From contig CAYLZI010000001.1 of the NCBI GenBank assembly GCA_964388215.1, positions 6,980 through 70,979 on the forward strand: DNA of 64,000 nucleotides, written 5' to 3'. The position numbers and the translations under genes are program-made. Below, piece by piece: positions 4,638 through 20,899 of the stretch; position 1 is the first letter of the stretch, and every line of letters begins with the position of its first letter. The stretch comes from an uncultured Anaerolinea sp. Lineage in GTDB: Bacteria > Chloroflexota > Anaerolineae > Anaerolineales > Villigracilaceae. Under the pieces are notes generated by a model. The model was given only the letters and a program-made list of their open reading frames with translations. It did not search any database and was not told where the DNA came from.

Positions 4638-5675
4638 CTAACGCACAACCAATATCACATTTGGCCCTAACTGTAGCCGCATTCCCGAATTAATAACATA
4701 AGGGGCCTGGGGCGTGAGTCGGGTGCCGTTCAAAAATGAGCCGTTGGCGCTATTCAAATCTATCACCTGGGCTTGCTTCAAATCTGGGTTGTACCGAAAT
4801 TCTACATGCTGGCGTGAAACTTCCTTTTCGCCAAGTAAGAGCGGGTGCGAGCGTCCAAGAATCGCAGGGAAGGTGTCTATTGTTAATGTGCCGCTGGCGG
4901 CTGCGGCTTTTTCAATAAACAGATGCAACCCAGGTAGAGCCTCTCCCATCATTGTTACATTTTCATCCTGTCTACCAGATGTCAAAGACCCAAAAACCGG
5001 TTCCGATTTGCCAGATTGGGTCTCCAAAAAAGAGGCGGGATGCAGGTGTTGTTGCGCATCCTCTACAGTGGGTTGCATCAAAAAAGTCATTTTAACGTTT
5101 TTGCCAAAGAAAAGAGTATCTTTGTGGCGCAATTCTGCTTTTTGGCCGGGTGCCAACACTTTTTTATTTAAGATGGTTGGGTTGGTGGGGGTTAAAGATT
5201 CGAGATAATATTTGCCATCCTTCATGCTGATTTGGGCATGGCGGCGCGAGATGCTCATACCGTTTGGGTGATTCTGGAAATTGACCGCCAGTAACATGTT
5301 ATGCTCAGCACTGTTGGTTGGCCTGCCTATCAAGGCTGGCGTCCAATCCAAAGCATATTCCCTGTCGGTTTCTTCATCCCGCAGTTTGATGCGCCCGGCG
5401 TCGAGCATCTCACGCAGGTCATCGCGGTTGGCATAGGCCAGGGTCAGTTCGTCTTGAGGCTGGATATCGGCCTTCTCGAGGGTTTGTTCGCGCGGCAGGC
5501 TTTTTTTGCTGCCCTTTAGATATAGAGCATAGCGTTCGGGCGAATCTGCCGGAATATCATCGAATTCCTTCAATATCTCTTCAATCAGCTCTCCCAACCG
5601 AAGCGTTTTTAACACCTGGGCGCGCTGGCCCTGGCGGTCAAAAATATCCAGTCGTATTTCGATATATTCTTCCAT
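4638..5675 (-). CDS. Ubiquitin-like (YukD/EsaB-like) domain fused to two FHA domains
   Basis: The N-terminal ~80 aa beta-grasp-like segment ends in TLEKADIQPQDELTLAYA. FHA 1 is LIGRP...MSISRRHAQISMKDGKYYLESL. FHA 2 is ILGRS...EVSRQHVEFRY...DLNSANGSFLNG. GGAG lies 9 nt upstream of the ATG. Confidence 0.75.
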   Translation of the reverse strand: MEEYIEIRLDIFDRQGQRAQVLKTLRLGELIEEILKEFDDIPADSPERYALYLKGSKKSLPREQTLEKADIQPQDELTLAYANRDDLREMLDAGRIKLRDEETDREYALDWTPALIGRPTNSAEHNMLLAVNFQNHPNGMSISRRHAQISMKDGKYYLESLTPTNPTILNKKVLAPGQKAELRHKDTLFFGKNVKMTFLMQPTVEDAQQHLHPASFLETQSGKSEPVFGSLTSGRQDENVTMMGEALPGLHLFIEKAAAASGTLTIDTFPAILGRSHPLLLGEKEVSRQHVEFRYNPDLKQAQVIDLNSANGSFLNGTRLTPQAPYVINSGMRLQLGPNVILVVR

Positions 5676-5677
5676 GC

Positions 5678-8600
5678 TTATGCTCCATCTTTAGGGGCTG
5701 GTTCAACGGGAAGAAGGCCCATGACGCGTGCATTGTCGAGAATATCGGCATCTGAAAGATGCGAGAGCAGGGCTTCGGGCACCCCACGCTCGAGCAATCC
5801 CTGTTTAAGTACCGCCAGGTCATATTCGGCGGAGGCAGGCATCCCCGAGGTGGGTTGCTCTGTAGCAGCAACTTGTTGCGAGGCCGGGGTGGATGGTGAT
5901 TCGGGGGTGGGCGTCTTCCAGGCCACCTTTTGATTTTGGTATCGCTTTTGGATTTTGCCAACCCAACCATCCAGGGATGCTTCCACATCATCATCTGGGT
6001 AAGGGCTGGCAATTTGGAGCATACTGGTAATGCCTGAACGGATAATGAAGCCTCGCCCCATTGGCAATTCGACCTCCGCAAGGCTGCGCGGGAATTTACC
6101 ATTCAGACGGTTGACCGCCTCTGCGCTCTTTAAGGCAATCCCAAAACTTGGCGCAGCAAAGACGCGGCGAAGGTCATCGGTAGCGCTCATAATGCCTAGC
6201 GAACCTGCTACCACCATGTAAACGCCAGCAGTCTGATATTTGCGAATCAGAGCCGAGGCGTTTTCGAAAAAGGCTGAATTTTTGCGGCTGGATTCTTCTG
6301 TGAAGGCGTCGTAATTGTCAATGAACAGCATAATTTTGCGGCGGCGCGGGTTTTTGTCAAATTCGGCGCATTCTTCTGCCAGATTGGCATAAAAATTATC
6401 CAGTTGGGAGATATCGTCAATGGTTTGGACGACGTGAGGCAGGTTTGCCAGGGAGGTCTGTTCTCCTTTCCAAAGTTTGCGCGAGTAATCTACCAGCACC
6501 ATCATCACTTCATCGGGTGAGTAATGCCAGGCAATCGAGAGCATCATCGTCCGCAGGGTGGTGGTCTTGCCAGAGAAGGGCTGTCCGATGACAACCAGGT
6601 GCGGGCCCTGTCGTTCAATATCAATCAGGGCCGGAGCCAGGCTGCGGTCATCAATACCCATTACAGCATGAATACGACGTACTTGAGGAAGTTTTGATTG
6701 ATGGAGCAAGTTATCGAGCGATGAACGCGCTGGGAGCGTTTCAATGGAGGATGGCTTTTCCCCCGTCCAACGTTCGTCCCACAATTCCTTCATCTCGATG
6801 CACATTTGCTTTGTTCTTGCCAAACCATCTGGGTCGTTTTCGGTTGGGTCAAATGTCAGAGCAGTTTGGAATTCAAGCGGCATATTGCCAACCCGCGCAT
6901 AACCACGCCCAGGGACGGGGCTTAAATCGGCGGGAACGCCGCGCCCGACGATGTCACCATAATCTGATGCGTCTGTCAGTTTGAGTGTCAGCCGCTCAGT
7001 CACCAGGCTGAAGAGTTTGCCGCCTAACGCGCTGGGAGATTCGGCTGAGAAGATGAAATGTACGCCGTAAGCGCGCGATTCGCGAATCAGCGACATGAGC
7101 GGTGACATCAAGCCATCGTAATATTCTTTAAATTCAGCGAAATTATCAATAACCAAAAGCACTGCCGGAAGGCGTTTTTCGGGATAGATGGCATTGTAGG
7201 TGTCCAGGTTAATAACTCCCGCATCGCTAAACAGCACCTGGCGGGCATCAATGATGTCGGTTACCTTTCTCAGGACGCGCAAAACGCGCTCTTCTTCTTC
7301 GGCGGTGATGACGGCCCCAACGTGGGGTAAATCCTGAAAGACAGACAATGCCCGGCCGCCAAAATCAAGGATGTAGATGTGAAGTTCGTCTGGTGAATGG
7401 GAAAGCGCCAGGCCAGAGATGACGGTTCGCAAGAAGGTGGTTTTCCCGCGCCCAGACGCGCCAAAAATGACAGCATGCCCGTTGGGGAAATTAATAGAAA
7501 GGGGCTTCTGAATGGCTTCATAGGGATTGTCTATGATTCCAAGCATTGGGCGCATGGCTGTTTTTCCCCAGCGAGCGCCTTGCCAGTCAAAACGGCCGGA
7601 TAGGCAGGCATTGGCCTGTTCATTCAGGCAAACTCCGTTTGCGTCCTCTGCCCTGCTCATGCGCAGCAGGGATAAATCATCGTCAGTCATGTAGTCCGTG
7701 TCCAGCCTGGTTTGCAGAGAAAGAACGTTTTTGTCTTTTTGCAGAGGCAGGAAGGCGGGCCAGGGTCTCCATTGCGGCTTAGATTCCTGAGTAGAGAGAT
7801 TGTATAGCATCTTGACAATCTCGTCATATAGTTTTGGCGGCTCTTCTTGCTTTTTTGCGTCTGATTTTTTTCGGTCCAGCCAGATGACGTTGGGGTTGCG
7901 CGATTCTTCTTGCGGCCCTTTGTAATCACCGCCTGTATAAGCCGTTTGGATTAATTCGATATTTTCGTTGCCAATCTGCAAATAGCCGCGCCCAGGAATA
8001 CCAGGCGGTAGGAAGGCCGCATCAGAGCGGCGCAAAACCTCGCGGCTGTCATCTGGCGTTTCAACGCGTAAACAGATACGGAATTTGATATTAGCGCGCA
8101 TCTGGTCAGTTACGCCAACGGGGCGCTGGGCCGCCAGGATGAGCGTGACGCCCAATGCGCGCCCAAGCCGGGTGATGCTTTCCAGTTGGGCCTTATACTC
8201 CGCGTTGCCAGAAATCATTTCAGCAAATTCATCAATGATGATAAAAAGATGCGGGTAAGGCTGGCTGTCTTCTTTCAGGTTTAGCCCTCTTTGGCGGTAG
8301 TGAACAATATCTTTCGATGCAGAGTAAGTGTTCAACTTCTGCCGCCGGTCGAGTTCGGCGATGATGGATGCAAAAACGCGCGCAGTAGCCGATTCGTCCA
8401 AATTGGTGACGATATCCACTGCATGAGGAAGTTTTTTGAACGGGTCGAAGGCAGACCCACCCTTGTAATCAACCAATACAAAGTTTAGCACATCTGGGCT
8501 GTAATTAAGCGCCAGGCCGATGATGAGGGTCATTAAGAGTTCGGATTTCCCCGAACCGGTAGAACCAGCGATAATACCATGCACGCCATCTGCTTTGGCC

Positions 8601-10216
8601 GAAAACGTCAGCACGCGCGGCTCATTTCCTGAAAGCAATCCAATTGCCGTTTGAAGCCAATCGGCTTGTCCAGGATTTTTGCTGCGCTGCCAGTTTTCTC
8701 GTGAAAAGTTGCGTAATTCATCCAGTGTAGAAAGGTTGAGCATTTCCAGCAAGGTCACAGTGGATGCCAGGCTTGCGCCGTATCCGCGCCGAAGTTCCTG
8801 TGGTTCAAGGGCGCGGGAATACTGCCGGGCAGTATCCTGGCTGTCTACTAAGGATGTCGTTCCGACATAGCGAATGGTGTTAAAACCGGTTTCGGCGTAA
8901 CGAAAGACCGCCTGTCCATTATCGTCGGCGAACTTGTCCACTTCCAGTATGGCTGAACAACGGCTGGGCACTTTTGAACGTTCAGGAACTAAAAATAATA
9001 TCCCTGCGCCCAACATTTCTCCGTCCATCAGGATGGTTGAAATGGCAGCTTCGCTTTCCAGGTCATGAAGGCACGACCAGCCGGGGGCCGGATGCAAGAC
9101 ATCTACCACAACCAGCAAGAAGGGCAGGCGCACATCCGCGCCACTTTCTTTGTCCTTATCTTGCAAGCGCATTCGCCGGCGTTCCAAAATGGTTCGAATA
9201 TTTTTCCAAAACAAGCGCATCCGGTCTGGCTCATTTTCTCCAGGCTTCTGCTCACTCTCAAATCGCAGAGTTTCAGACTTATCTGATTCTTTGCAGTGCG
9301 GCAAGGCATACGCCCAACGCCAGTCTGCCCGCGCAACAGCAGTTCCTGCGACATAGAGCATCGTATCTTGTGGAGAATGGAAGGTGGCATAATCAACCAG
9401 CATGGTGCGCAGGTAAGCGTAAATTTTTTCTGGGTCGCTGCCCGTAATCCCTATGGAATGCCGGATGGTCACGCCTTTGGCTTCTTGCGCCTGTTCTTCT
9501 TTCTCGCCGTCAGACTGCTGGTCGCGCTTCTTTTCAACTTTTTTGCGTTCTTTTTCATTCAGGCTCAGGTACATTGGGACAGTTACAGGAACCCCATATA
9601 GCAAACGCGAATCTTCTGCCAGGCGGGTCGCTTCGCGCATTAATGGGTTTTCAGGTTTTTCGTCTTCGGAGATTTTGTATATAACTGTAGATTGACGGGT
9701 GCTTAGGCCCAGGCGCAGGTGCAAAAAATCGTGGTCGGTGGGCCGCCGCTCCCACAACCTGGTTCCCGAACGAATAGCCTGTTCCTGTTCTTGGGACGAG
9801 CGATACAAGTCCAGGGCAATGTTGAGAGATTCAGATGGGTTGGGGTAGTTGTAAAAATAATAAATTCTTTGTTGTTCATGTTCGCTTTGCATTTGGCGGC
9901 GTAGTTCGCCCAAACGGCGCAGATAAGCAGCTTTGGCTTCTTCTATCTTCTTGTTTTCCTGAATGTGTGAGTAAACCGAGAGCAAAACCGCGCCAACAAT
10001 GGATATCAACATAGGTATCATCATTGTCATATTACGGCCCTGCCCAAAAATAGATACGAGAAAATACCCCATAATCATAAGCAAGGGCAACATGGCTTGC
10101 TGAAGCAAGCGCATCGGGTCTTTTTCGGTATCTGGCGGGTTAGGAATATCGACAACCCCTGAGGGCAGTTCCGGTTCAATCCGAGGCGGGCGTTCAATAT
10201 AAGATTTTTCAGTCAT
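5678..10216 (-). CDS. EccC/EssC-like type VII secretion ATPase (FtsK/SpoIIIE family, three P-loop modules)
   Basis: 1512 aa. N-terminus is IERPPRIEPELPSG followed by two TM helices. Walker A motifs are GSTGSGKSE, GASGRGKTT and GQPFSGKTT, with Walker B-like IIIDEFAE, LVIDNFAE and LFIDNYDA. Confidence 0.9.
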   Translation of the reverse strand: MTEKSYIERPPRIEPELPSGVVDIPNPPDTEKDPMRLLQQAMLPLLMIMGYFLVSIFGQGRNMTMMIPMLISIVGAVLLSVYSHIQENKKIEEAKAAYLRRLGELRRQMQSEHEQQRIYYFYNYPNPSESLNIALDLYRSSQEQEQAIRSGTRLWERRPTDHDFLHLRLGLSTRQSTVIYKISEDEKPENPLMREATRLAEDSRLLYGVPVTVPMYLSLNEKERKKVEKKRDQQSDGEKEEQAQEAKGVTIRHSIGITGSDPEKIYAYLRTMLVDYATFHSPQDTMLYVAGTAVARADWRWAYALPHCKESDKSETLRFESEQKPGENEPDRMRLFWKNIRTILERRRMRLQDKDKESGADVRLPFLLVVVDVLHPAPGWSCLHDLESEAAISTILMDGEMLGAGILFLVPERSKVPSRCSAILEVDKFADDNGQAVFRYAETGFNTIRYVGTTSLVDSQDTARQYSRALEPQELRRGYGASLASTVTLLEMLNLSTLDELRNFSRENWQRSKNPGQADWLQTAIGLLSGNEPRVLTFSAKADGVHGIIAGSTGSGKSELLMTLIIGLALNYSPDVLNFVLVDYKGGSAFDPFKKLPHAVDIVTNLDESATARVFASIIAELDRRQKLNTYSASKDIVHYRQRGLNLKEDSQPYPHLFIIIDEFAEMISGNAEYKAQLESITRLGRALGVTLILAAQRPVGVTDQMRANIKFRICLRVETPDDSREVLRRSDAAFLPPGIPGRGYLQIGNENIELIQTAYTGGDYKGPQEESRNPNVIWLDRKKSDAKKQEEPPKLYDEIVKMLYNLSTQESKPQWRPWPAFLPLQKDKNVLSLQTRLDTDYMTDDDLSLLRMSRAEDANGVCLNEQANACLSGRFDWQGARWGKTAMRPMLGIIDNPYEAIQKPLSINFPNGHAVIFGASGRGKTTFLRTVISGLALSHSPDELHIYILDFGGRALSVFQDLPHVGAVITAEEEERVLRVLRKVTDIIDARQVLFSDAGVINLDTYNAIYPEKRLPAVLLVIDNFAEFKEYYDGLMSPLMSLIRESRAYGVHFIFSAESPSALGGKLFSLVTERLTLKLTDASDYGDIVGRGVPADLSPVPGRGYARVGNMPLEFQTALTFDPTENDPDGLARTKQMCIEMKELWDERWTGEKPSSIETLPARSSLDNLLHQSKLPQVRRIHAVMGIDDRSLAPALIDIERQGPHLVVIGQPFSGKTTTLRTMMLSIAWHYSPDEVMMVLVDYSRKLWKGEQTSLANLPHVVQTIDDISQLDNFYANLAEECAEFDKNPRRRKIMLFIDNYDAFTEESSRKNSAFFENASALIRKYQTAGVYMVVAGSLGIMSATDDLRRVFAAPSFGIALKSAEAVNRLNGKFPRSLAEVELPMGRGFIIRSGITSMLQIASPYPDDDVEASLDGWVGKIQKRYQNQKVAWKTPTPESPSTPASQQVAATEQPTSGMPASAEYDLAVLKQGLLERGVPEALLSHLSDADILDNARVMGLLPVEPAPKDGA

Positions 10217-10227
10217 CGTTTGTCATC

Positions 10228-11340
10228 CTACACAGGCGAGATAATGAGGGCCAGGCTGAGAATGATGAATATAGCCAGGAGAGCGCCCAAAACAATAAAA
10301 ACCATGCGCCAGTTCATGCGTACGGGCTTTTTTTCCGCAGGAATAGGTGGCAGATTCTTACTCAGATGGTAAGCAAACTCTCTGACATCTGCAAAACGTC
10401 CGTCAGGAAAATGATTAATGGCTCTTTCAGCGATGTTGGGCAGGTCTTTCAGGTCCACTCTACCGGTGGGAGCCGCGCTGTCAGCCAAAACTTTCTGGTA
10501 AACGGCAGAATCGCGCAACAAATGATATTCAAAGGCCGGCTTGCCTGCCAACATTTCGTAAAGCAACAAGCCCAGCCCATAGACGTCTGTCTGCGCGCTG
10601 ACAGGTTTCTCTTGTAAAATCTCAGGGGCAGTATAAGCAGGCAAGTTATAAGAATCGCGCCAGGTTGAGGCAAAGTTTTGGGCGGTATCACCCAAGCCCA
10701 AATCTAATAACATAGCGCGCGGAATACCCTGCTTATCATAACGAACCAAAACAGAATCGGGATTGAGGCAAAGGTGGGATTTCCCGGCCCGGTGTAAATA
10801 AAGGATGACATCGGCAATGCTCAAAGTAATCCAACCGGCATATTGATACCAGGGCTGAGGGTTTTTCAGGAGCAGGTTGCGCAGGATTGTCCCCTCTGCA
10901 AAAGCAAAAACTTCATAATAGCGAATATGACCATTGACGACAATCCATCCATACGGATGCAATTGGCGGCTGCCGTGTATGTGGGCCGGCAGCAAAACCG
11001 GCAAGAGGGGATGCTGCCCCGCTTCTGCCAATTGCAAAAAAGCGCGCGCTTCTCGGCGTAATTTGTCTTCGTTCCCAGTGGTTGCAACCTTGAGGAGGAT
11101 GCGTTCTGTCTCGCGCTGCGCTTCGTAAATAATAAAAGCGCGGGCGATGACAACCGGCTGGATAATTTCGATAGGCCCGAACCACTCACCGTTATCAAAG
11201 ATTTCGGTGGCGTTTTCTGCCGGGCAATCTTTTTGCTGGCACCACAAATTAAAGTCTTGTGAAATAACATTACAACGCTGGCAAATTCGCTTCACATCGC
11301 ACCTCGCGCCAGATTGGTACATGGAATAACAGGAAACCAC
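10228..11340 (-). CDS. Tail-anchored protein-kinase-fold protein, predicted pseudokinase, with N-terminal Cys-rich (zinc-ribbon-like) segment
   Basis: Kinase-fold landmarks are kept: ILLKV, DLG, YTAPE, DVYGLGLLLYEML. HRDLKPxN is replaced by HLCLNPDS and there is no GxGxxG. CQRC-x11-CQQKDC sits at the N-terminus and a single TM helix at the extreme C-terminus. Start may be GTG 11340 or ATG 11322. Confidence 0.7.
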   Translation of the reverse strand: MVSCYSMYQSGARCDVKRICQRCNVISQDFNLWCQQKDCPAENATEIFDNGEWFGPIEIIQPVVIARAFIIYEAQRETERILLKVATTGNEDKLRREARAFLQLAEAGQHPLLPVLLPAHIHGSRQLHPYGWIVVNGHIRYYEVFAFAEGTILRNLLLKNPQPWYQYAGWITLSIADVILYLHRAGKSHLCLNPDSVLVRYDKQGIPRAMLLDLGLGDTAQNFASTWRDSYNLPAYTAPEILQEKPVSAQTDVYGLGLLLYEMLAGKPAFEYHLLRDSAVYQKVLADSAAPTGRVDLKDLPNIAERAINHFPDGRFADVREFAYHLSKNLPPIPAEKKPVRMNWRMVFIVLGALLAIFIILSLALIISPV

Positions 11341-11391: not shown

Positions 11392-11691
11392 TTAACCCAC
11401 AAATCGCTTAGAGCCAGATGTGTCTCCATCACGGTAAGCCGCAATGGCGCTGGTGATGTCCCCCGAAAGTTCCTTCATTTTTTCAGCAAGCCGCTTAATA
11501 TTGGGCAGAATGCGGTCAATAAACATCGCAGCCGCGGCGGTAGCGCCTCCCGAAAGCCAGGCTGTAACCTTCAAAACAATGCTCATTGCTTCAAGCGTTT
11601 TGGCAACCGCATCTAAAATTTCGCCAAAATTGGCAAATTTCTGGCTCATATCCTGCACAGCAGGAATATCCATATAGACTTCTTGTGCCAT
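11392..11691 (-). CDS. WXG100-like small protein (99 aa)
   Basis: Size, predicted two-helix layout, central AWLSGGATAAA turn and C-terminal YRDGD (YxxxD). GAGGAG SD upstream. Lies in the tandem WXG array. Confidence 0.6.
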   Translation of the reverse strand: MAQEVYMDIPAVQDMSQKFANFGEILDAVAKTLEAMSIVLKVTAWLSGGATAAAAMFIDRILPNIKRLAEKMKELSGDITSAIAAYRDGDTSGSKRFVG

Positions 11692-11708: not shown

Positions 11709-12041
11709 TTAGTAAATCTGGCTAAAGACATCAATGAGCGTTTGGGCAGCCTGGGTTGCCTGCCGTTCCGCCTGGCGCATTCGTTCGGCAGACCTGCTGA
11801 TAGCCGAAGCATAGCTCTGGTTGGTATTCATAATGTTGACAAGCATGGGGATGACCTCGCTGGTCATTTCTTCTACAAAACGCACAGAGCCATCACCGCG
11901 CCAAACGCCGCCTACCACCTGGGCCACGATGGCGCGCAGGGGGGCCGTAACGGCATCTTCAATGATTCTGACCTGAGACAAAATTTGCTGCACAACGCCT
12001 TCCAGCAGCCCAAATACCAATTTGAAAAGCCCGCTAAACAT
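11709..12041 (-). CDS. WXG100-like small protein (110 aa)
   Basis: Central VWRGDGSVRFVEEM (W-x-G). AGGAGGTG SD upstream. Confidence 0.6.
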   Translation of the reverse strand: MFSGLFKLVFGLLEGVVQQILSQVRIIEDAVTAPLRAIVAQVVGGVWRGDGSVRFVEEMTSEVIPMLVNIMNTNQSYASAISRSAERMRQAERQATQAAQTLIDVFSQIY

Positions 12042-12057
12042 TATTCACCTCCTGGCT

Positions 12058-12351
12058 TTAATTAAACTTGACGCCCGCTTTGCCATCGGCAGCTTGCATA
12101 TCGGCGATAGCATGGCGGATATCGCTGGCAATTTCACGATATTTCTCGCTTAGTCTGCCTACGCGGTTAGAAAAGATACCCAATGCCATAACATATGTTT
12201 CCCCAGGCGCGCCTTGCAACGCACCGTTTTGCATTTGGGATGCGATTTTCTGGGCAGTGGAAGCAGATTGGGCCAGCCGGGCGGCAGCATTGTCGCATTG
12301 GCGCGCCATATCTTCCATGGCCGGGTAATTGGTACGGATAATATCACTCAT
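12058..12351 (-). CDS. WXG100-like small protein (97 aa), W replaced by L
   Basis: N-terminus MSDIIRTNYPAMEDMA is typical of the family. The central turn is ALQGAPGETY. AAAGGAG SD upstream. Confidence 0.65.
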   Translation of the reverse strand: MSDIIRTNYPAMEDMARQCDNAAARLAQSASTAQKIASQMQNGALQGAPGETYVMALGIFSNRVGRLSEKYREIASDIRHAIADMQAADGKAGVKFN

Positions 12352-12380: not shown

Positions 12381-12686
12381 TCAGGCCATGTTGGAGAAGT
12401 ACCCTTTGGTCTCTTCATCTGCTTGCTGAACAATTTGCATGATTTGTCCGGCAACGCTGGCAGCGACTTCAAGAGCAGCAATCATTTTTTGGGTGCGCGG
12501 GAGCGCAATGGTATTCATTTCTTCATAGAAGCGGTCAGCACCTTCACCAATCCACTGACTGCCATGCAGCGCGTCGGCCATCTGCTTCGTTTTTTGGTAC
12601 AGTTGTTGGATGTCGGCCTTTTCAGTTTCCAACATGCTGACGATGCTTTGCATTTCTTCATAGTTGACTTGAATCAAGTTAGACAT
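12381..12686 (-). CDS. WXG100 family protein (101 aa)
   Basis: MSNLIQVNYEEMQSI... with canonical central SQWIGEGADRFYEEM. AAGGAG SD upstream. Confidence 0.8.
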   Translation of the reverse strand: MSNLIQVNYEEMQSIVSMLETEKADIQQLYQKTKQMADALHGSQWIGEGADRFYEEMNTIALPRTQKMIAALEVAASVAGQIMQIVQQADEETKGYFSNMA

Positions 12687-12773: not shown

Positions 12774-13664
12774 TTACTCTCGCGATTCTTTTGCTAAATC
12801 TTTGACTTTTTTAGCAGCCGCGCCAATCGCTGCGGCTGCCCCGGCAAGGCCGGCGGCCATGCTCCCGGCAGAAACCCCAGGTTTCTCGGTAAAATCAGGC
12901 TGCAAGGCAGGGTCGGGCGATTCTGTAACTACTGGGGGGTTATTCGATGTAAATAGGTGGTCTGGCATGGGTTGTTCGCCTCCGCTGGTTGCGCTCGTTT
13001 GGGTTGGCTCCGCGCCCAAAGCACTACCAAGCCCATTCAAACTTCCCTGTAAACCAGAGCTGCTCGAACCGCCGCCCCCGCCGCCTCCAGATGATGACGC
13101 CGGATCGGTTGGGGTGGGTTGCTGGCCTCCCAATTTTTGTCCACCAGATGAAGAATTTTCTTGAGCGGCTGATTGCTCAGCAGCCGAAGGTTGATTCGCG
13201 CCTGGTGCTGGGTCGCCTGGCCCACTCCCACCAGAACCAGGGTCACCTGACCCACTACCGCCAGAACCAGAGCCGCCTGCCCCGCTCCCGCTAGAACCGC
13301 CTGATTCTGCGTTCGAAGGGCTGTTCTGCCCTGGCAGGGGATTGTTAGAAGTACCCCCTAAAACGCTTTCAGAAGAAAAATGTTGGGCAATTTCGTCATC
13401 TTCTAATTGAATAATCTGCATTATTTTTCGCAAGGCTTCATCGGCAAGCAAGAGCGCCTCCCCGGCGCGTTTATGGGCAGGCAGAGCAACTTCTTCCATC
13501 TCTTTATAAAACGCATCTGCCGATTTGCCAATCCAATCCTGCCGCAGGGCGTGCATCCGCTGACGCAAGAGAGAATGGTCCTGTAGAAGCGTCTCGCCTT
13601 CATCGCGGAAGATGCGCGCAATTTTGACCAATTCGTCATAGTTCAATTGCAGCAAAGATGACAT
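12774..13664 (-). CDS. WXG100-domain protein with long Gly/Ser/Pro-rich C-terminal extension (296 aa)
   Basis: The N-terminal ~100 aa (LQLNYDELVKIA...QDWIGKSADAFYKEM) is WXG100-like. About 170 aa of G/S/P-rich low complexity follows, then an Ala/Gly-rich hydrophobic stretch MAAGLAGAAAAIGAAA. Confidence 0.75.
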   Translation of the reverse strand: MSSLLQLNYDELVKIARIFRDEGETLLQDHSLLRQRMHALRQDWIGKSADAFYKEMEEVALPAHKRAGEALLLADEALRKIMQIIQLEDDEIAQHFSSESVLGGTSNNPLPGQNSPSNAESGGSSGSGAGGSGSGGSGSGDPGSGGSGPGDPAPGANQPSAAEQSAAQENSSSGGQKLGGQQPTPTDPASSSGGGGGGGSSSSGLQGSLNGLGSALGAEPTQTSATSGGEQPMPDHLFTSNNPPVVTESPDPALQPDFTEKPGVSAGSMAAGLAGAAAAIGAAAKKVKDLAKESRE

Positions 13665-13676
13665 AGCAACTCCCTG

Positions 13677-15929
13677 TTAGCGGGTAATTTCAATCCGAAT
13701 CATAATTTTTGTCCCCAGTCGAACCATCGAACCGGGCTTAATCTCCACTGCCTGCGATGGGATTAATTGGAGGTTATCAACATACGTTCCATTACGACTG
13801 CCCAGGTCGGTTAAGCGATACCCTCGCCGAGCGGGGTCATAATCTATTTGGGCATGACGGCGCGATAGGTGCGGCTCAGGGATTTGCACTTCTCCCTCGG
13901 TACGTCCTATCACAACCGGAAACTGCCTGAGCGGGCGGGGTTGGCGGTCTATCTCGACAGGCGCATCAACAAGAACCAGTGTCAGGGCTGGGAAGACGGA
14001 CTCCATTGTTCTAGCAGTTTCATCCGCTCCCACAAGGGTTTGAGCGGCAATCTGTTCTTTCGCAACCGGAGGAACTTTCACTTCCCTGTTTCTGGGGCGC
14101 GCCACGAAAGGCTCATCTGTCGCAATAGGCAGCCCAGAGCCAGCCCGCAAATTTTTCCCTAATTCACCGCCCATGACAGGCGTGCCGCTGGCTTGTTTTT
14201 GCCTTGCCGAAGTGAACATCAGGAATCCTACCAGGCCAATCACAACTGCCAGGATTGCGAGCAGAAAAACAGGGTTGGCAATCATGGCTGAAGAGAGACG
14301 CTGGAACAGGGTAGGGGCTTTGTAATTCAAATCCTTATATGTATCTATTGAATATTCATTGCCGTCATCAGCCAGCGCGCGTAAAACAAGCGTATATTTT
14401 CCGCTAAGCACGCGGTTGTTTCGGAGTGGAATAATGAGCGGGTCATCGGGCTTCCCCATCATCCGAAATTCAGACCCTTCAACTTTGATGTTGGTATCCT
14501 GATTGACCAGCCAGCCATCTATGCCAGCCACCAGCGCGAGGTTGGTCAACGAAAAATCCACTTCTAAGTCAAAACCTTTTTGGCTGATTGCCTGTATTTT
14601 CAACGTCGGGAATGCCGAAGATGGGTCATAAATGAATTCGTGCCTGATTTCGCTGGCAGGCTTATCATCCTGACGGGTAATCATGAAAGGGGCGTTATCT
14701 GCCAGAGAAATTGCAGAAATTAGCAGGTAGTAACTTCGATTGGTAGTCAGAATGGATGCCGGGATTGAGTAGGTCTTGTTGGAAGATAGGTCCTCGAAAG
14801 GATATTCGCCCATCTTCGAACCGGCACTTTTGTCCCAAACTTCAATTTTGATATATTTGACCAGCTCTGGCGAAGTCATGGATAAATCAACATCATAAGA
14901 CCGGCTGGCAGCGTTGAGCGAAAAGCCCTTTAATTCCACCCTAACCTTGCTCGGCGGGCCAGGGTAGTCGGTATTTGAATTAATCGAAAAGGTTTTGCTG
15001 ATGCTCTGCGAGCCAGGTAAATTAATCGTGAGCAATACCTGGCTTGTCCCGCGCTTTGGGTAAACCTCAACCTGAACCATCCACTGAGATTTCAGCGCGT
15101 CCATGATGTTGCCAAAGGCGCTGGCGAGGTCGTCTTTTTTGACAATCGCAGAACCCCCGCCTGTCGAAGACGCCCACCCTTTGAGTTCAACTTCATTCAA
15201 ATCACCATCTTTAAGCGATAGGCCGATTGTGCTGATGGGAACCTGGCTATCCATGGCAAGATTCATCACTTCATTGAAGTTTCTCTTGCTGCACTGCTTT
15301 CCATCAATTTTTACATCTTTTCCATCAGTGAACACAATCACCGCCCGGCGGCCTACGGGCGCTTTTTGAATCGCTTCGACTGCGCTGTAAGCGGCATCGT
15401 ACAAACAGGTGCCGCCCTGCCTCTTGACAGCATACTGGTCAATGGCAAATGTAACTGCCGGGATATTCTGGGTAAAATCTTGCAGCAGTTTAATTTCGTC
15501 GTTAAATTGCACAACCGAAAAAAATGAATTATTGGGAGTATTCGTCAGCGCGGCTTTCGCGGCGCGCTTCAAATCTGGCTCAAGCCCCCCCATGCTGCCG
15601 CTTGCATCCAACACCAGCGTCACATAAATTGGAATATCAGGCCGGGTAACGGGAGACTGCGCAGTCTGGTTATACTGGGGAAGGCTAATTTCTGCATTTT
15701 GGGGCTGCGGCCCCATCACAGGCAGGCTGGTTTTGGGGTCTAATATGTTGAAGTAAACCTTCATCACCAGACCATCCGGCGTTTCCAGAGTGGAGACCTG
15801 GCTAATGCGAAGTTCCAGGCCAGTGTCTTGCTGGGCCTGCGCAATGCGAGCAAAACAAAGCAAAATCGCTAGAAAAACGACTGTAAAAATCGGCCTTGTA
15901 AGCATTCCACTTCCCTTTGGCGTATACAT
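13677..15929 (-). CDS. Membrane protein: signal peptide, extracytoplasmic VWA domain plus beta-rich region, TM helix, cytoplasmic FHA domain
   Basis: Signal-like ...LLCFARIAQAQQ. MIDAS motif LVLDASGSMGG and VIVFTDGKD. TM helix VFLLAILAVVIGLVGFLMF. C-terminal FHA is VVIGRTEGEVQIPEPHLSRRHAQIDYD...LTDLGSRNGTYVDN. Confidence 0.8.
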   Translation of the reverse strand: MYTPKGSGMLTRPIFTVVFLAILLCFARIAQAQQDTGLELRISQVSTLETPDGLVMKVYFNILDPKTSLPVMGPQPQNAEISLPQYNQTAQSPVTRPDIPIYVTLVLDASGSMGGLEPDLKRAAKAALTNTPNNSFFSVVQFNDEIKLLQDFTQNIPAVTFAIDQYAVKRQGGTCLYDAAYSAVEAIQKAPVGRRAVIVFTDGKDVKIDGKQCSKRNFNEVMNLAMDSQVPISTIGLSLKDGDLNEVELKGWASSTGGGSAIVKKDDLASAFGNIMDALKSQWMVQVEVYPKRGTSQVLLTINLPGSQSISKTFSINSNTDYPGPPSKVRVELKGFSLNAASRSYDVDLSMTSPELVKYIKIEVWDKSAGSKMGEYPFEDLSSNKTYSIPASILTTNRSYYLLISAISLADNAPFMITRQDDKPASEIRHEFIYDPSSAFPTLKIQAISQKGFDLEVDFSLTNLALVAGIDGWLVNQDTNIKVEGSEFRMMGKPDDPLIIPLRNNRVLSGKYTLVLRALADDGNEYSIDTYKDLNYKAPTLFQRLSSAMIANPVFLLAILAVVIGLVGFLMFTSARQKQASGTPVMGGELGKNLRAGSGLPIATDEPFVARPRNREVKVPPVAKEQIAAQTLVGADETARTMESVFPALTLVLVDAPVEIDRQPRPLRQFPVVIGRTEGEVQIPEPHLSRRHAQIDYDPARRGYRLTDLGSRNGTYVDNLQLIPSQAVEIKPGSMVRLGTKIMIRIEITR

Positions 15930-16134: not shown

Positions 16135-16833
16135 TTAGTTCCATGGCTGCGCCCACTGTTGCAGCACATCGTTATCTTTGATGAGAATCCGCCGGTTTTC
16201 GACATCAATCGCCCCTGAGCGCTCCAACTCGCGCAGGGAACGCGCCACCACCTCACGCACAGTGCCGAGGCGCGCCGCCAGTTGGTCCTGGGTCCAACGG
16301 GTTGAGCCATCGCCGCGCAAGTCCTCAGGCGGAATCTTGCCAATCAGCCGCGCCAGGCGGTGCGTCACCTGGTAAAAAGCCATCTCGCTGACCAGGTTGA
16401 CGAGGTGGCGCATCATCCGCGAAAAATTTTGGATAGTTTTCCGCATAAACTCTGGGTCGGCGCTCATTAACTCCTGCACCGCATCCGCATCCACCACCCA
16501 GGCGGTTGTTTCCTCCAAGGCTTCCACGTTAACCGGGTTCTCGCCGCCATCGAAAACGGGAACCTCGTTACAAGTATCGCCCTCCTGCATTACACGGATG
16601 ATGTGCTGACGGCCAAGCGGGGAAACGCGAAAAAGTTTGACACTCCCTTTTTGGATGATATGCAACCCGGCGCACGGGTCGCCCTCCCAAAACAGGACTT
16701 CGCCGCGCTCAAAACGCCGAAGCGTGGTTGAAGCAGCTATTTTTTTTAACGAATCTTCACCTAATCCCTGGAAAAAAAGGTTGGAGCGCAGGGCATTCAG
16801 TTTTTCAGATGGGTCGATTTTTAGATGCATCAT
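16135..16833 (-). CDS. Crp/Fnr family transcriptional regulator
   Basis: cNMP-binding beta-roll (GEVLFWEGDPCAGLHIIQKGSVKLF) plus a C-terminal HTH (TQDQLAARLGTVREVVARSLRELE). Confidence 0.85.
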   Translation of the reverse strand: MMHLKIDPSEKLNALRSNLFFQGLGEDSLKKIAASTTLRRFERGEVLFWEGDPCAGLHIIQKGSVKLFRVSPLGRQHIIRVMQEGDTCNEVPVFDGGENPVNVEALEETTAWVVDADAVQELMSADPEFMRKTIQNFSRMMRHLVNLVSEMAFYQVTHRLARLIGKIPPEDLRGDGSTRWTQDQLAARLGTVREVVARSLRELERSGAIDVENRRILIKDNDVLQQWAQPWN

Positions 16834-17002
16834 GGGAGTATTGTACCTGAAATCGCCAAAACGCTGCGCAAAAGTAAATAGACGAGGGTAGAATTATGCC
16901 ATGCACAGCATTTTATGATAAAGTGTATGTGACCAAGCAGAGGGTGTAATCCGCTGCCCATATAGTTTGAGAGATATGCCCATCTGACGTGAGAGGAACA
17001 CC

Positions 17003-17560
17003 ATGAAAGCCATCAAAATACTGCGCGCTGAACAAGAACTGATTGACCGGTTCCTGACTGTCTTTGGCCTGGGGGCTGTCAAAGCGGCCCAAAATAAACC
17101 CGTCCAAGCAGGTTTTTTCATTTATGGTTGCAGTTTCATCAAAGAATTTATCGAAAATAGTTACTTCAAAAAAGAGCAGGTGTTATTCAAAGTGATGGAA
17201 GAAAATGGGCTGGCAACCGATAGCGGGCCGCTCCAGCACATGCTTGAGGAAATCACCGCCAGCCAAGAAATAAGCAGTGACCTGCTCGCAGCAGCACGCC
17301 AATGGCAAGGAGGCGACCTGGGCGGGCGCAACGGCATCATTTGGGCAACCAGCGGCTATACCACCATGCTGCGCCAGCATATTGACCGCTCACGAAGCAT
17401 CATCTTCCCCCTTGCCGAACAGATTATCCCACTAGACGAGCAGTATAAAATTGCCGAAGCCTATAACCAAATCGTATTTGAAGAAGGCGAAACCCACCCG
17501 TTTGAACATTACGAAAAAATCGTCACATCCCTGAAAGACGAAACCGACGACTGGAAATAA
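17003..17560 (+). CDS. Hemerythrin-like domain protein with degenerate metal ligands
   Basis: Spacing and flanking residues match the ~185-aa hemerythrin/HHE family as I recall it (ILRAEQELI, FIKEFIENSYFKKEQVLF, GPLQHMLEE, LRQHIDRSRSIIFPLAE). Most positions expected to be His are Q/Y/F/E. Confidence 0.5.
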   Translation: MKAIKILRAEQELIDRFLTVFGLGAVKAAQNKPVQAGFFIYGCSFIKEFIENSYFKKEQVLFKVMEENGLATDSGPLQHMLEEITASQEISSDLLAAARQWQGGDLGGRNGIIWATSGYTTMLRQHIDRSRSIIFPLAEQIIPLDEQYKIAEAYNQIVFEEGETHPFEHYEKIVTSLKDETDDWK

Positions 17561-17586
17561 GCGCGCCACCAACCCGGAGGAGAATT

Positions 17587-18366
17587 ATGCCAGAGCATCC
17601 TTACCAGCAAATTGAGACCCTTCTCTCCAGCGCAAATGCAGAGAAAATCCATGAAGGGCTAGAACTCGCCCGGAAAGAAATCGCCCGAATTGGCTCGAAA
17701 GAGGCCCGGCCGCTCTTTGAGATAGTGGCGATGCTCTTCCACTTCGACATGCTCGATCGCCCTGACCTGGTACCCGTCTTGAACGAAGCCGTCAGCCTGG
17801 TCGTTGGGTTCGGCGACTGGGTCATCCCCGAACTGTTGCATGAACTGGATGACGGCGACCTGAAAGCCCAACTAACCATTGGTCACGCTCTGGGACGCAT
17901 CGGGGCAGATGCTATCCAACCATTGATTGCCGAATACAACACGACCAGCGATTCAGCGCGGCGCGTCTTCGTATTGTATGCGCTGGGGAAGATAAAATCG
18001 CCTCGCGCCATGGATGCCTTGCCTCTCGCGCTGGATGCCGTCAACTCCGGCGACCAGGAACTGCGTGATACCGCCACGCGGGCGATTGGGAAATTTGTCG
18101 AGTTCGCCCCTTCGCTGTCAGATTCTTTACGCGAGGAAATTATCCAAAAACTCCAACGCAACCTGGCCGATAGCAGCCCAGCCATCCGCGCAAAGGCCGT
18201 CCGCAGCCTGGGCAAGTTGGCAAAATTCGGCCACCTGACACAGGGAGAGCGTCAATCGCTTAAAACCATACTGGAACGGCTGATGGGCATTGACGAAGAT
18301 TACGCATGGGATTACGCCTACATCGTGCGACGCGAAGCCGAAGAGGCCTACCAGTACGTTCAATAA
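17587..18366 (+). CDS. HEAT-repeat protein
   Basis: 259 aa of ~30-aa helical repeats, e.g. QELRDTATRAIGKF and PAIRAKAVRSLGKL. Confidence 0.7.
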   Translation: MPEHPYQQIETLLSSANAEKIHEGLELARKEIARIGSKEARPLFEIVAMLFHFDMLDRPDLVPVLNEAVSLVVGFGDWVIPELLHELDDGDLKAQLTIGHALGRIGADAIQPLIAEYNTTSDSARRVFVLYALGKIKSPRAMDALPLALDAVNSGDQELRDTATRAIGKFVEFAPSLSDSLREEIIQKLQRNLADSSPAIRAKAVRSLGKLAKFGHLTQGERQSLKTILERLMGIDEDYAWDYAYIVRREAEEAYQYVQ

Positions 18367-18424
18367 CTCACCTTACGCAGCCCGCCAAATACTTTCACAG
18401 CCGTCATCACTAACCCCGCCTTCA

Positions 18425-18815
18425 TCACCAGACATTTTTAATGTTGAGCAAGCAAAAAGAGCCGGGCAAGTGCAAATTTAGGTTGAGGCAATAGTCGAGA
18501 AACGCCAAGCCCATGCGAAAAATGCTCCAGTCCGAACGGTCTGTACGGTGAATGAGTCTGTCATAATTGGTTCGCATGGCAGGAATGCCGAGGTAGACGG
18601 GCCACAGGTACGCCAGACAAGCGGCGGCCATCAATCTTGTCAATCGCTTGGGGATTATGGCCGCCGAAGAAAGTTTCAATTTGAAAGCGTTCTTTGTAGC
18701 AGTGCCAGGCCTCATCAGGCAAGTCAAAGTTGGTGACAAGATAAATAGGTTCCGGGCATATTGCAAACGTACCCCCGCTTTTTTGCCGCGCTTGCGTAAA
18801 CAGGCGGATTAGCAA
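18425..18815 (-). mobile_element. Degenerate IS (DDE, IS4-like) transposase C-terminal remnant
   Basis: YKERFQIETFF (YxxRxxIExxF signature) in one frame. A second overlapping ORF (18425-18766) occupies another frame. No intact transposase ORF and no terminal repeats identified. Confidence 0.55.
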
Positions 18816-18833
18816 TCCACCCCACGGCCCTCG

Positions 18834-20246
18834 CTAATCATCATCGCCGCCTTCTTCCTTCTGCCCCGTCGCGTGACAGCGCAGGCAGTCGTTAAAGTCG
18901 GCGATGTTTTCTTTGCGGTGTTCCTGCTCAATTTCGGCGCGGTCGTGGCAGGTGTAGCACGTCCATTGCGCCAGGGTGGGCTGGTGACAGTCGGCGCAGG
19001 TGTTGATGCGCCCCTTTTCCTGCCCGTGATTCATGGGGAAGAGATGCAGGCCGTTATACGGCGCGGGACGCCAGGCGGCGGTAGTGTGACACGCCGAGCA
19101 AGCCTGGCCCACAAATAACCCGCGATGATAGTCCGGGTCGGCGTGGCAGGCGGCGCATTCGGTGGGCGTGCCTTTGTAGGTGTTGTCTTTGTGGCATTGG
19201 GCGCATTCCACGCTCACATGAGCGCCATCGAGCGGGAAGCGGCTGAGGGCGTGGTCAAAGGTCGCGTCTTTCCAGTCGCCGGGGTGGTGGCAGGTTTGGC
19301 AGGCCGCGCCATATTGCTCCTCGTGGGCGTCATCTTGCGCGTGACAGGAGTAGCAATCTTTGGGGGTTCCGGCGTAGCCCTGGGTGTGGCAACTCGCGCA
19401 TTCCACGCCCGTGTGCTTGCCTTCGAGCGGGAAATTGCCCAGGCTGTGGTCAAATTTGGCGGGTTTCCAGGCTTCTGGGCTGTGACAAACGCCGCATTGC
19501 AGGCCAAAATCGCCTTTGTGGGCATCATCTTTGAGATGGCAGGACTCGCACGCCCGGTTTGTGGATTGCAGTTGGGAGATTTCCCGCGCCCCAGCGTGGC
19601 AGGCGGAACACTCTACCCGTGTGTGGGCTCCCGTTAAATCGAACGCGGTCTGGCTGTGGCTGAAATCGCCGTAGCGGTCTATGCCGTCGTGGCAGGCGAG
19701 GCAATTTGCGCCAAAATCGGCGAGGTGTTTTTCGGTGTAGGGCGCGTCGAGGCTGTGGTGACATTCGGCGCAGGTAAGGGCATCGAAGCGGGAGATGCTT
19801 TCGGTGTGGCAATCGCTACAGACGAAGGAAATGCCGGGGGAACGAATCTCATGCGCGATGAGGGCGAAGCCGGTGACCTCGTGGGGGAAGTTGACTGTAT
19901 TCATAACGGTCAGCCCGGCTGAGGGGCCGGCGTGTTCCGTGTGACAGGATTGGCAGGTAGCGTCAGTTCCTTTAACGAGAATCCCGTGCAGGGTGGATGA
20001 ATCTCCCATTTCCCCCTTAATTTCAGTATGACAGACCAGGCAGCGCTCTGTCATGCGCTCGGAACCCCAAAATGGGGCGTGGCATTGTCCACAGTCGTCG
20101 CCAATTTCGGCATGGACGATGTGCAGCGCACCGGGGCTGAACATGGCGTTGCCGTTGATGACTTCCATGACGAGCAGGGCAAAAACGGCCAGGAAGCCGC
20201 TAAAGATGGCGAGGGGGGAGAGACAGCCGAGTTTGTTGTTGTTCAT
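18834..20246 (-). CDS. Multiheme cytochrome c, 18 CxxCH motifs, N-terminal signal anchor
   Basis: Start trimmed to ATG 20246 (MNNNKLGCLSPLAIFSGFLAVFALLV). I counted 18 CxxCH motifs, from CGQCH and CLVCH to CYTCH and CLRCH. The longer tracked ORF reads through a repeat and the upstream gene. Confidence 0.9.
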   Translation of the reverse strand: MNNNKLGCLSPLAIFSGFLAVFALLVMEVINGNAMFSPGALHIVHAEIGDDCGQCHAPFWGSERMTERCLVCHTEIKGEMGDSSTLHGILVKGTDATCQSCHTEHAGPSAGLTVMNTVNFPHEVTGFALIAHEIRSPGISFVCSDCHTESISRFDALTCAECHHSLDAPYTEKHLADFGANCLACHDGIDRYGDFSHSQTAFDLTGAHTRVECSACHAGAREISQLQSTNRACESCHLKDDAHKGDFGLQCGVCHSPEAWKPAKFDHSLGNFPLEGKHTGVECASCHTQGYAGTPKDCYSCHAQDDAHEEQYGAACQTCHHPGDWKDATFDHALSRFPLDGAHVSVECAQCHKDNTYKGTPTECAACHADPDYHRGLFVGQACSACHTTAAWRPAPYNGLHLFPMNHGQEKGRINTCADCHQPTLAQWTCYTCHDRAEIEQEHRKENIADFNDCLRCHATGQKEEGGDDD

Positions 20247-20257
20247 GGAAGACCTTT

Positions 20258-20335
20258 CCCTCACCCTGGCCCTCTCCCGGGGGGAGAGGAGATTTTGCCC
20301 CCTTCTCCCTTCGGGAGAAGGGCTGGGGATGAGGG
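20258..20335. repeat. GC-rich nested-palindrome repeat, family 1 (intergenic copy)
   Basis: CCCTCACCCTGG-CCCTCTCCCGGGGGGAGAGG-...-CCCTTCTCCCTTCGGGAGAAGGG-CTGGGGATGAGGG. Two internal hairpins are closed by an outer inverted repeat. It fills the gap between two minus-strand genes. Confidence 0.85.
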
Positions 20336-20899
20336 TTATTTCAGCAAAGTTGAATAGTAAAGCGCGCCAAGAATGTGGGCAAAAGCGGCGGTGAAGAGCG
20401 CCATGCCGATGGGGATGTGGATGGTGTGCCAGAGCGACATCAGGCGACGGGCGTTGGCGAGGGCGGAGGCTTGCATAACGCCGACCAGACCGGGGTCTTC
20501 GATGCCGTCGGCGGTGCGCGGGATGCGGGTGTAGATGTAGCGCCCGATGAAGCCGCTGACGACAATGATGCCGGTGAACAGCAAGGTGACGCCCGCCAGC
20601 CCGTTGAACTTCCAGGAGGAGTGAAGGAGTACCATGAAGGGGCCAACGATGCCGGTGAAAATGTGGAATTGCAGCCAGCTTGCCATGCGCCCCCAACGGG
20701 CAGAGCGGGTGCGTTTGCGCAGGCTGTAAAGGGTTTCGGTCATCAACATCAGCAGGAAGCCGAGAATACCGATGATGTGTCCGTAGAAGCCGCCCGCGGC
20801 GGGGATTTCGCGGGTGAAGAAGAGCACAGCGGCGTAGGAGGCGGCAATGAGGGCGCAGGCGAGGAAGGCGAGGAGGAGTTCTTTGGAGGAGCGGAGCAT
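20336..20899 (-). CDS. Integral membrane protein with conserved His in TM helices (possible b-type heme carrier)
   Basis: 187 aa with about 4-5 TM helices. Intramembrane His residues occur in YGHIIGILG, QFHIFTG, LLHSSW, WHTIHIPIG and FAHILG. Sits between the oxidoreductase and the cytochrome c gene. Confidence 0.6.
   Translation of the reverse strand: MLRSSKELLLAFLACALIAASYAAVLFFTREIPAAGGFYGHIIGILGFLLMLMTETLYSLRKRTRSARWGRMASWLQFHIFTGIVGPFMVLLHSSWKFNGLAGVTLLFTGIIVVSGFIGRYIYTRIPRTADGIEDPGLVGVMQASALANARRLMSLWHTIHIPIGMALFTAAFAHILGALYYSTLLK

Follow-up and report, generated by a model that had tools for sequence, protein, structure and literature searches.

A predicted membrane-anchored pseudokinase is a constant neighbour of EssC in type VII secretion system-like loci of Chloroflexota

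We analysed a 64,000-nucleotide stretch of DNA from an uncultured Anaerolinea sp. (contig CAYLZI010000001.1), hereafter the window, in which nine co-directional genes on the minus strand form a cluster resembling a type VII secretion system (T7SS) locus. The seventh of these genes encodes the predicted pseudokinase that is the subject of this work. A first-pass annotation had let its open reading frame (ORF) run from 10228 to 11340. We instead place the gene at 10228-11295 on the minus strand, where it encodes 355 amino acids (aa) from a GTG start codon at 11295. More than 600 homologues, each 355-356 aa long, have MKRICQRC as their N-terminus, and a GAGG Shine-Dalgarno sequence lies 6 nucleotides (nt) 5' of this GTG, so we take the GTG, and not position 11340, to be the true start. 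A plus-strand reading of 10228-11340 was ruled out, as it is full of stop codons.

Three parts make up the protein: a C4 zinc ribbon at the N-terminus, a Hanks-type kinase fold that is complete, and a transmembrane (TM) helix at the C-terminus. All four cysteines of the zinc-ribbon-like motif (CQRC-x10-CQQKDC, residues 5-24; 11224-11283, minus strand) are invariant in 23 of 23 close homologues, and all four aligned in 102 of 125 representatives of the wider family described below. The fold of this segment is deduced from the cysteine motif because AlphaFold confidence is low in residues 5-24. A cysteine segment ahead of the domain had been recognised in the first pass, with the spacing misread as eleven residues. 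The kinase-like domain follows at residues ~36-315 (10351-11190, minus strand), supported by AlphaFold, Foldseek and hhalign, and the TM helix, evident both in the sequence and as a helix in the AlphaFold model, occupies residues 329-352 (10240-10311, minus strand). It is preceded by EKKPVRMNWR and followed by a three-residue tail, SPV; in most of the 125 representatives the tail after the TM-like segment is likewise 0-7 residues long. These features agree with the earlier description of a single TM helix that ends the protein with almost no extracytoplasmic tail. Directly ahead of the helix, residues 316-328 carry a conserved juxtamembrane motif, [FY]G-x-[VI]-P-x-E-[KR]-[KR], whose Pro316, Pro319 and Glu321 are invariant among close homologues and which is recognisable family-wide. 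The stalk of the EssC-type ATPase encoded by the next gene may make contact here.

The central domain belongs to the Hanks-type Ser/Thr kinase superfamily, its match being far beyond chance. Pfam Pkinase (PF00069) matched the window protein with an E-value of 1.1e-14 and 54.9 bits, above the cut-off of 31.7, and the same profile matched all 23 of the 23 homologues; 748 PDB kinase sequences matched the window protein at E<=0.01. The Pfam match spans profile positions 74-199 only, and the AlphaFold model and hhalign together delineate a full two-lobed domain at residues ~36-324. In the AlphaFold2 model (pLDDT 77.9, pTM 0.75), a standard five-stranded N-lobe with an alphaC helix is joined to a helical C-lobe. 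The best 50 PDB matches that Foldseek found for this model were all bona fide kinases (Aurora A/B/C, PknB, PknA, CaMKII and PKA), with target TM-scores of 0.65-0.79 for Aurora, PknB, PknA and CaMKII. The hhalign probabilities to an active bacterial serine/threonine kinase (STK) were 97-99.6%; the 125-sequence family alignment aligned with it over 265 columns covering both lobes, at a probability of 99.6% and an E-value of 3e-24.

To map the kinase motifs we used three independent alignments, one made with phmmer to CaMK1D and two made with hhalign, in which the 23-sequence and 125-sequence alignments were each compared with one active STK. All three agree. The motifs ILLKV, HLCLNPDS, DLG, YTAPE and DVYGLGLLLYEML, on which the first reading of the protein as a pseudokinase rested, are every one present in the minus-strand ORF. 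Where an active kinase has HRDxKPxN, the catalytic loop is degenerate and reads HLCLNPDS (residues 174-181; 10753-10776, minus strand), with Cys176 in place of the catalytic Asp, Asn178 in place of the Lys and Ser181 in place of the Asn. The first-pass annotation had called all three residues substituted, and phmmer and hhalign both uphold this; a catalytic Asp was placed elsewhere in none of the alignments. It was also right that no Gly-rich loop is visible, since the beta1-beta2 hairpin, where that loop is expected, reads VVIARAFIIY. Other hallmarks are kept. Lys69 of ILLK (11089-11091, minus strand) aligns with the beta3 Lys of VAIK, Glu82 of RREA with the alphaC Glu, and Glu225 with the Glu of APE, while DLG (residues 198-200; 10696-10704, minus strand) stands in place of DFG; the alphaF Asp has its equivalent in Asp237, and the Arg of subdomain XI in Arg300. 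The window protein lacks the HRD Asp, the loop Lys and Asn and the Gly-rich loop of a catalytically active kinase; it keeps the beta3 Lys, alphaC Glu and DFG Asp, without a catalytic base, as a pseudokinase capable of binding nucleotide does. Judged by these residues, it may bind ATP.

This pattern extends across the family. Searched with a family profile, a set of 1.84 billion representative proteins yielded 192 clusters (50% identity level) at E<=1e-30, and conservation was counted in 124 of the 192 cluster representatives, those of 300-450 aa, together with the window protein (125 sequences). The beta3 Lys is kept in 123 of these, the alphaC Glu in 124, the DFG Asp in 119 (the Gly of that motif in 118) and the APE Glu in 114. 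At the position of the catalytic Asp, by contrast with an active kinase, we found N (41), A (32), G (16), S (11), C (9) and T (4), with D in only two sequences; the catalytic-loop Lys position is mostly S, N or T, the catalytic-loop Asn position is variable, and the Gly-rich-loop region lacks any Gly in 106 of the 125. Cys176 itself is restricted to the Anaerolineae subclade and is not needed family-wide. By sequence criteria the entire family is a pseudokinase family, of the class that keeps the nucleotide/metal-binding triad, and the predicted status of the window protein is upheld by the motif mapping and by the family alike. With ~190 clusters in which the triad is kept and the catalytic loop is lost, the family is a large and clean addition to the poorly studied bacterial pseudokinases and a good test case for kinase folds that bind nucleotide without catalysis.

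We then turn to the genes around the pseudokinase. Farthest upstream in the cluster is the gene for a 750-aa VWA-FHA protein (13677-15929, minus strand), in which a signal peptide, a VWA domain (VWA_2, 2e-12), a beta-rich ectodomain, a TM segment (551-572) and a linker lead to a cytoplasmic FHA domain (4.3e-15). Next come a 296-aa WXG100 protein (12774-13664, minus strand; WXG100 2.5e-6, TIGR03930 2.3e-10) with a long Gly/Ser/Pro-rich extension, and four small WXG100 genes (12381-12686, 12058-12351, 11709-12041 and 11392-11691, all minus strand) that match WXG100/TIGR03930 and whose order is kept in related loci. The extension of the 296-aa protein is a low-complexity Gly/Ser/Pro-rich region and is followed by an Ala/Gly-rich C-terminus. 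After the pseudokinase, and starting only 11 nt beyond its stop codon, lies the gene for a 1512-aa EssC/EccC-type ATPase (5678-10216, minus strand) with three FtsK_SpoIIIE matches (7.8e-75), a TIGR03928 EssC match (3e-206) and an EccCb match above the cut-off. Pfam found no FHA domain in this EssC, and a search of its N-terminus for a phospho-acceptor returned only the usual RPPR/PPD motifs. The last gene (4638-5675, minus strand) encodes a 345-aa YukD-FHA-FHA protein, consisting of a YukD-like ubiquitin-like (Ubl) domain at residues 1-82 and two FHA domains (4.5e-27). A three-P-loop FtsK/SpoIIIE ATPase and five WXG100 genes in one cluster identify a T7SS locus. Pfam and NCBIfam detected no EsaA, EssA or EssB among the nine genes and EssC is without FHA domains, so the locus does not qualify as T7SSb, for which we used a genuine locus, that of B. 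mycoides pBMX_1, as the comparison.

We scanned one genome per species and found 59 loci, all in Chloroflexota metagenome-assembled genomes, mostly of Anaerolineae, bar one contig labelled Bacteroidetes. That contig (JAGXRB010000116.1, 'Bacteroidetes bacterium CROMO_A_64') holds the closest homologue, at 89% identity and with the same WXG/VWA-FHA synteny, and is most likely a mis-binned Chloroflexota contig. By tblastn, the order VWA-FHA, five WXG100 genes, pseudokinase, EssC and YukD-FHA-FHA is the same in all of the 59 loci wherever the contig is long enough, and when ORFs were clustered across the 44 long loci, these nine genes alone were conserved. The T7SS-like operon with three FHA domains that had been proposed is thus real, and the pseudokinase is a constant neighbour of EssC.

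Five divergent members of the family were also looked up, and four of them lie in T7SS-type clusters beside EssC, WXG100 and/or FHA genes. One locus, L062 (Aggregatilineaceae), encodes VWA-FHA, two kinases, YukD-FHA, EssC, the pseudokinase and WXG100; L064 encodes VWA-FHA, a 2788-aa EssC, FHA and the pseudokinase; L065 has a 2932-aa EssC, WXG100 genes, the pseudokinase, a 707-aa FHA protein and a kinase; and L066 has the pseudokinase, WXG100-toxin fusions and VWA-FHA. The fifth member, P0340 (L060/L061), is on contigs of ~2 kb, one of them 2.3 kb long, which are too short to reveal its surroundings; the sole neighbour visible, on the downstream side, is an unannotated gene of 99 aa. Because of the T7SS context in 59 loci and in four of five divergent members, we regard the family as a hallmark of T7SS-like loci in Chloroflexota. 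The two phyla in which the architecture of the T7SS is understood are Actinomycetota (T7SSa) and Bacillota (T7SSb), and the locus defines a conserved, undescribed Chloroflexota variant.

The first-pass annotation had offered the pseudokinase as a possible analogue of EssB/YukC. Membership of that family (PF10140, TIGR03926) was ruled out by Pfam, NCBIfam and hhalign: Pfam YukC (PF10140) matched none of 23 members at E<=10, NCBIfam EssB did not match the window protein, and the hhalign probability was 0.2% to B. mycoides EssB and 0.5% when profile was compared with profile. Because EssB is similarly remote from ordinary kinases (hhalign probability 8.7%), the low score to the EssB family says nothing on ancient common descent. 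Beyond the shared kinase superfold no kinship is apparent, and the 50 matches to which the Foldseek list extends are all active kinases. What stands of the analogy is the plausibility of a similar role. EssB/YukC proteins dimerise and bind the FHA domains and linker of EssC; for comparable contacts of the window protein the support is contextual, from synteny and the YukD-FHA fusion. Both proteins have a cytoplasmic kinase-fold domain without catalytic residues followed by one TM helix, and both genes adjoin those for EssC, a YukD-like Ubl, tandem FHA domains and WXG100 proteins. The differences are nonetheless considerable. In EssB the VAIK, HRD and DFG motifs are gone and the activation loop is shortened (PMC12599244 Table 1), whereas the window protein keeps the Lys, Glu, DFG Asp and APE, and its domain is full-length; outside the cell EssB carries a large domain, where the window protein has its three-residue tail and so departs from the EssB/YukC architecture; and the window protein has its N-terminal zinc ribbon. 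At the level of the system, too, the partner FHA domains are separate from EssC and keep their phosphothreonine (pThr) pockets, unlike those of T7SSb. The recurrence here of a membrane pseudokinase with no sequence relationship to EssB suggests that FHA-containing T7SSs are generally designed with a kinase-fold adaptor.

The YukD-FHA-FHA protein makes the comparison with T7SSb more specific. In the core unit of the B. subtilis T7SSb, YukB carries two N-terminal FHA domains, YukD clamps them and YukC binds FHA2 (PMC12637312). The locus has every one of these ingredients, wired differently, with the tandem FHA domains on the Ubl protein and not on EssC; in effect, the FHA pair that EssC carries in T7SSb has been shifted to the Ubl protein. 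AlphaFold models residues 4-81 of the 345-aa protein as a beta-grasp (pLDDT ~90), and Pfam YukD matched 12 of 25 orthologues (best E-value 2.6e-5) as well as the L062 orthologue (2.9e-6). An hhalign comparison of this domain with a single EsaB sequence found no similarity, and Foldseek of the YukD-FHA-FHA model returned FHA matches only, with no EssC FHA or YukD among them. The fusion of Ubl and FHA lends Rosetta-stone-type support to a conserved Ubl-FHA module, and backs the YukD-FHA contact seen by cryo-EM. By extension of this analogy, the pseudokinase would occupy the YukC position, and since the core-unit components are all present, an EssB/YukC-like scaffolding role is plausible.

We next consider whether such a role would depend on phosphorylation. 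The first-pass annotation had suggested that the pseudokinase could recruit the FHA domains without phosphotransfer, which corresponds to a phosphorylation-independent structural scaffold that binds FHA domains constitutively, as YukC/EssB does, and has no part in nucleotide binding or phosphorylation. The loss of the catalytic residues family-wide and the strict synteny with EssC fit such a scaffold, FHA-binding YukC/EssB is its T7SSb precedent (PMC9600267, PMC12637312), and neither the nine-gene core nor the window holds an active kinase. The FHA domains themselves argue otherwise. Across 25 YukD-FHA-FHA orthologues, neither FHA domain shows any variation in the GR / SxxH / N pocket residues, and the GR / SRxH / NG pocket of VWA-FHA is at least 90% conserved in 42 orthologues. 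The closest structures to the FHA model, by Foldseek, are the phosphothreonine-dependent OdhI, GarA, FhaA and DgcB. In the EssC FHA domains of the B. mycoides pBMX_1 T7SSb the pThr-pocket residues are absent, in agreement with the published account that T7SSb EssC FHA domains are without pThr-binding residues (PMC11217815). From their pocket residues, the three FHA domains of the window appear phosphothreonine-competent. A Lys-Glu-Asp triad that is 95-99% conserved is also unexpected for a functionless pocket.

Active kinases, moreover, are often close at hand. A canonical full-length STK, with HRDxKPxN, DFG and a Gly-rich loop (Pkinase E-value 1.6e-58), directly flanks the nine-gene core in 17 of the 44 long loci (39%). 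Examples are L010:2772-4385, L014:2686-4848 and L021:17168-19336, and in L062 two receptor STKs lie inside the locus itself (L062:1351-5200), one of them with PD40/Tricorn propellers. Possible substrates can be named as well. A segment of the VWA-FHA linker, AAQTLVGADETARTMES (residues 628-644; 13998-14048, minus strand), corresponds to two Thr motifs, DAT[ML][IV]A ... AT[ML][IV][AS], whose Thr is present in 37 and 39 of 43 orthologues in the ortholog alignment. The linker around them is otherwise variable and Pro/Ser/Ala-rich, just upstream of the FHA domain. Look-alike motifs, ATLIME in L066 and PTMVEQ in L065, occur in divergent loci. These Thr motifs are candidate phospho-acceptor sites or FHA ligands. 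Because the FHA pockets are intact, STKs are adjacent and the linker Thr motifs are conserved, phospho-regulated assembly, as in the type VI secretion system (T6SS), is likelier than phosphorylation-free recruitment. The idea of recruitment without phosphotransfer is weakened accordingly, and we regard the constitutive scaffold as doubtful.

The same observations bear on a second alternative, in which the protein is an atypical active enzyme, whether a kinase without the HRD Asp or a catalyst of AMPylation (SelO-like) or glutamylation (SidJ-like), and makes FHA ligands out of T7SS components. It would account for the kept Lys-Glu-Asp(DFG) triad and for the presence of this gene, the sole kinase-like one of the nine-gene core, alongside three phosphothreonine-competent FHA domains. 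Asp or Glu is found at loop position 180 in 100 of the 125 sequences, which is the position of the Asp of SelO 'TDN' (PMC12599244 Table 1), but a Glu at this position is common in ordinary kinases too (HRDLKPEN). An essential site would not be expected to vary as freely as the catalytic-base position does (N/A/G/S/C/T), the Mg-binding Asn position is variable, the Gly-rich loop is missing, and genuine STKs are at hand beside many loci, all of which makes this alternative quite unlikely. A broader version, in which an enzyme or ATP-gated switch with a replaced catalytic loop has kept the triad and the position-180 Asp/Glu so as to modify or gate T7SS components, strikes us as unlikely. If it were true, it would place a self-contained, phosphorylation-like activation circuit inside a Chloroflexota secretion machine. 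In a weaker form of this idea, the family would represent a less-degraded ancestral state that gave rise to EssB-type pseudokinases.

The flanking kinases raise a third alternative, that the pseudokinase is the allosteric partner or membrane anchor of a genuine receptor STK and that the pair regulates the T7SS by signalling, the pseudokinase not being a part of the machine. PknB/PknA-type kinases are activated by dimerisation, and the fold of the window protein is closest to kinases of this type. Active receptor STKs with TM and sensor domains do occur beside or inside related loci, and a 2026 preprint ties vWA/STK/FHA/beta-propeller sensing modules to Esx in Actinomycetales (PMC13622651), a parallel for the VWA-FHA and propeller-STK genes of the Chloroflexota loci. 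The pseudokinase is universal in the locus, however, whereas an STK is adjacent in only 17 of 44 loci, and the placing of the pseudokinase gene, 11 nt from that of EssC, suggests that the two proteins assemble together. We consider a dedicated STK partner very unlikely.

With moderate confidence, we favour the reading that the pseudokinase is a non-catalytic adaptor or switch subunit of a Chloroflexota-specific T7SS, that FHA domains binding phosphothreonine read out the assembly of this system, and that the pseudokinase may bind nucleotide. In this model, the C-terminal helix would hold the pseudokinase in the membrane beside EssC, at the cytoplasmic face of the channel, where its kinase-like domain, and perhaps the zinc ribbon too, would serve as a docking platform joining EssC, YukD-FHA-FHA and the FHA tail of the VWA protein. 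In T7SSb, this job falls to YukC/EssB, the EssC FHA domains and YukD. Unlike in T7SSb, assembly would probably be phosphorylation-dependent: conserved Thr motifs, such as those of the VWA-FHA linker, would be substrates of a genuine STK, whose gene lies beside many loci and, in this genome, presumably at another site, and the intact FHA pockets would read the phospho-Thr marks. Nucleotide binding by the pseudokinase could act as a conformational switch, or the pseudokinase could pair with an active kinase.

Several points weigh against this model. A search across the 64-kb window found neither an active kinase nor a phosphatase; the gene for the kinase would therefore have to lie in another part of the genome. 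The pseudokinase itself has no conserved Thr; Thr30 is not conserved family-wide, and Thr222 is no obvious phospho-docking site, as it is found in only 47 of the 125 sequences. The kept Lys-Glu-Asp triad is unusual for a pure scaffold, because EssB and the mycobacterial pseudokinase MviN have lost theirs, and residual or alternative catalysis could explain it. Finally, to our knowledge, T7SS function has never been shown experimentally in Chloroflexota.

Comparison with other known systems places the locus more precisely. Eight further T7SS variants, T7SSc-j, were described in 2024 from Bacillota and Actinomycetota only (Garrett & Palmer, PMC11217815), and 'Chloroflex' occurs zero times in the text of that paper. 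Their kinase-like membrane components are the nearest analogues in print: TshM (T7SSh) and TscD, TsdD and TseD (T7SSc-e) are encoded, as here, in loci with FHA, vWA and YukD-like proteins (PMC11217815). TshM resembles the window protein in that its one TM helix is C-terminal and an extracellular domain is lacking, but is only weakly kinase-like, while TscD and TsdD differ from the window protein in their kept active site and extracellular regions. Neither a zinc ribbon nor a YukD-FHA-FHA fusion is reported for TshM, TscD, TsdD or TseD. In the T7SS literature that we searched, Chloroflexi are otherwise named just for having WXG100/FtsK pairs and WXG toxins (PMC10765036, PMC3482391), and we found no mention of the nine-gene architecture with a pseudokinase.

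Two systems outside T7SS offer parallels for a pseudokinase or kinase that works with FHA proteins. MviN (Rv3910) of Mycobacterium tuberculosis is, like the window protein, a membrane-tethered pseudokinase, and works with the FHA protein FhaA and the STK PknB; the FhaA-MviN complex (3oun) was among the structural matches of our FHA model. Unlike the window protein, MviN retains none of the three catalytic motifs, forms part of one polypeptide with a lipid II flippase and serves as the phospho-acceptor itself, and its context is cell-wall synthesis, whereas that of the window pseudokinase, without a conserved Thr, is secretion. In the T6SS, PpkA, Fha and TssL likewise combine a membrane kinase-fold protein, an FHA protein and a phospho-Thr membrane component to steer machine assembly, and the NCBIfam TagH (VI_FHA) model weakly matched the YukD-FHA-FHA protein. 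PpkA differs in being catalytically active and in serving the T6SS, and the secretion core there has no homology to the T7SS of the window.

A few further features of the related loci and of the window deserve mention. The giant EssC-like ATPases of two divergent loci (L064:920-9286 and L065:1-8189) are about twice the usual size and have extra FtsK/NACHT-type P-loop matches. In L066 (3321-8367), WXG100 is fused to the toxin domains Tox-HNH-HHH and CDI_toxin_EC869_like where the window has the 296-aa WXG100 gene, and these systems probably export polymorphic toxins. The region directly upstream of the T7SS operon in the window (16135-20696), for whose genes we saw no T7SS link in related loci, encodes a Crp/Fnr-type regulator (16135-16833, minus strand), a hemerythrin-like protein, a HEAT-repeat protein and a 620-aa multihaem cytochrome c (18834-20696, minus strand).

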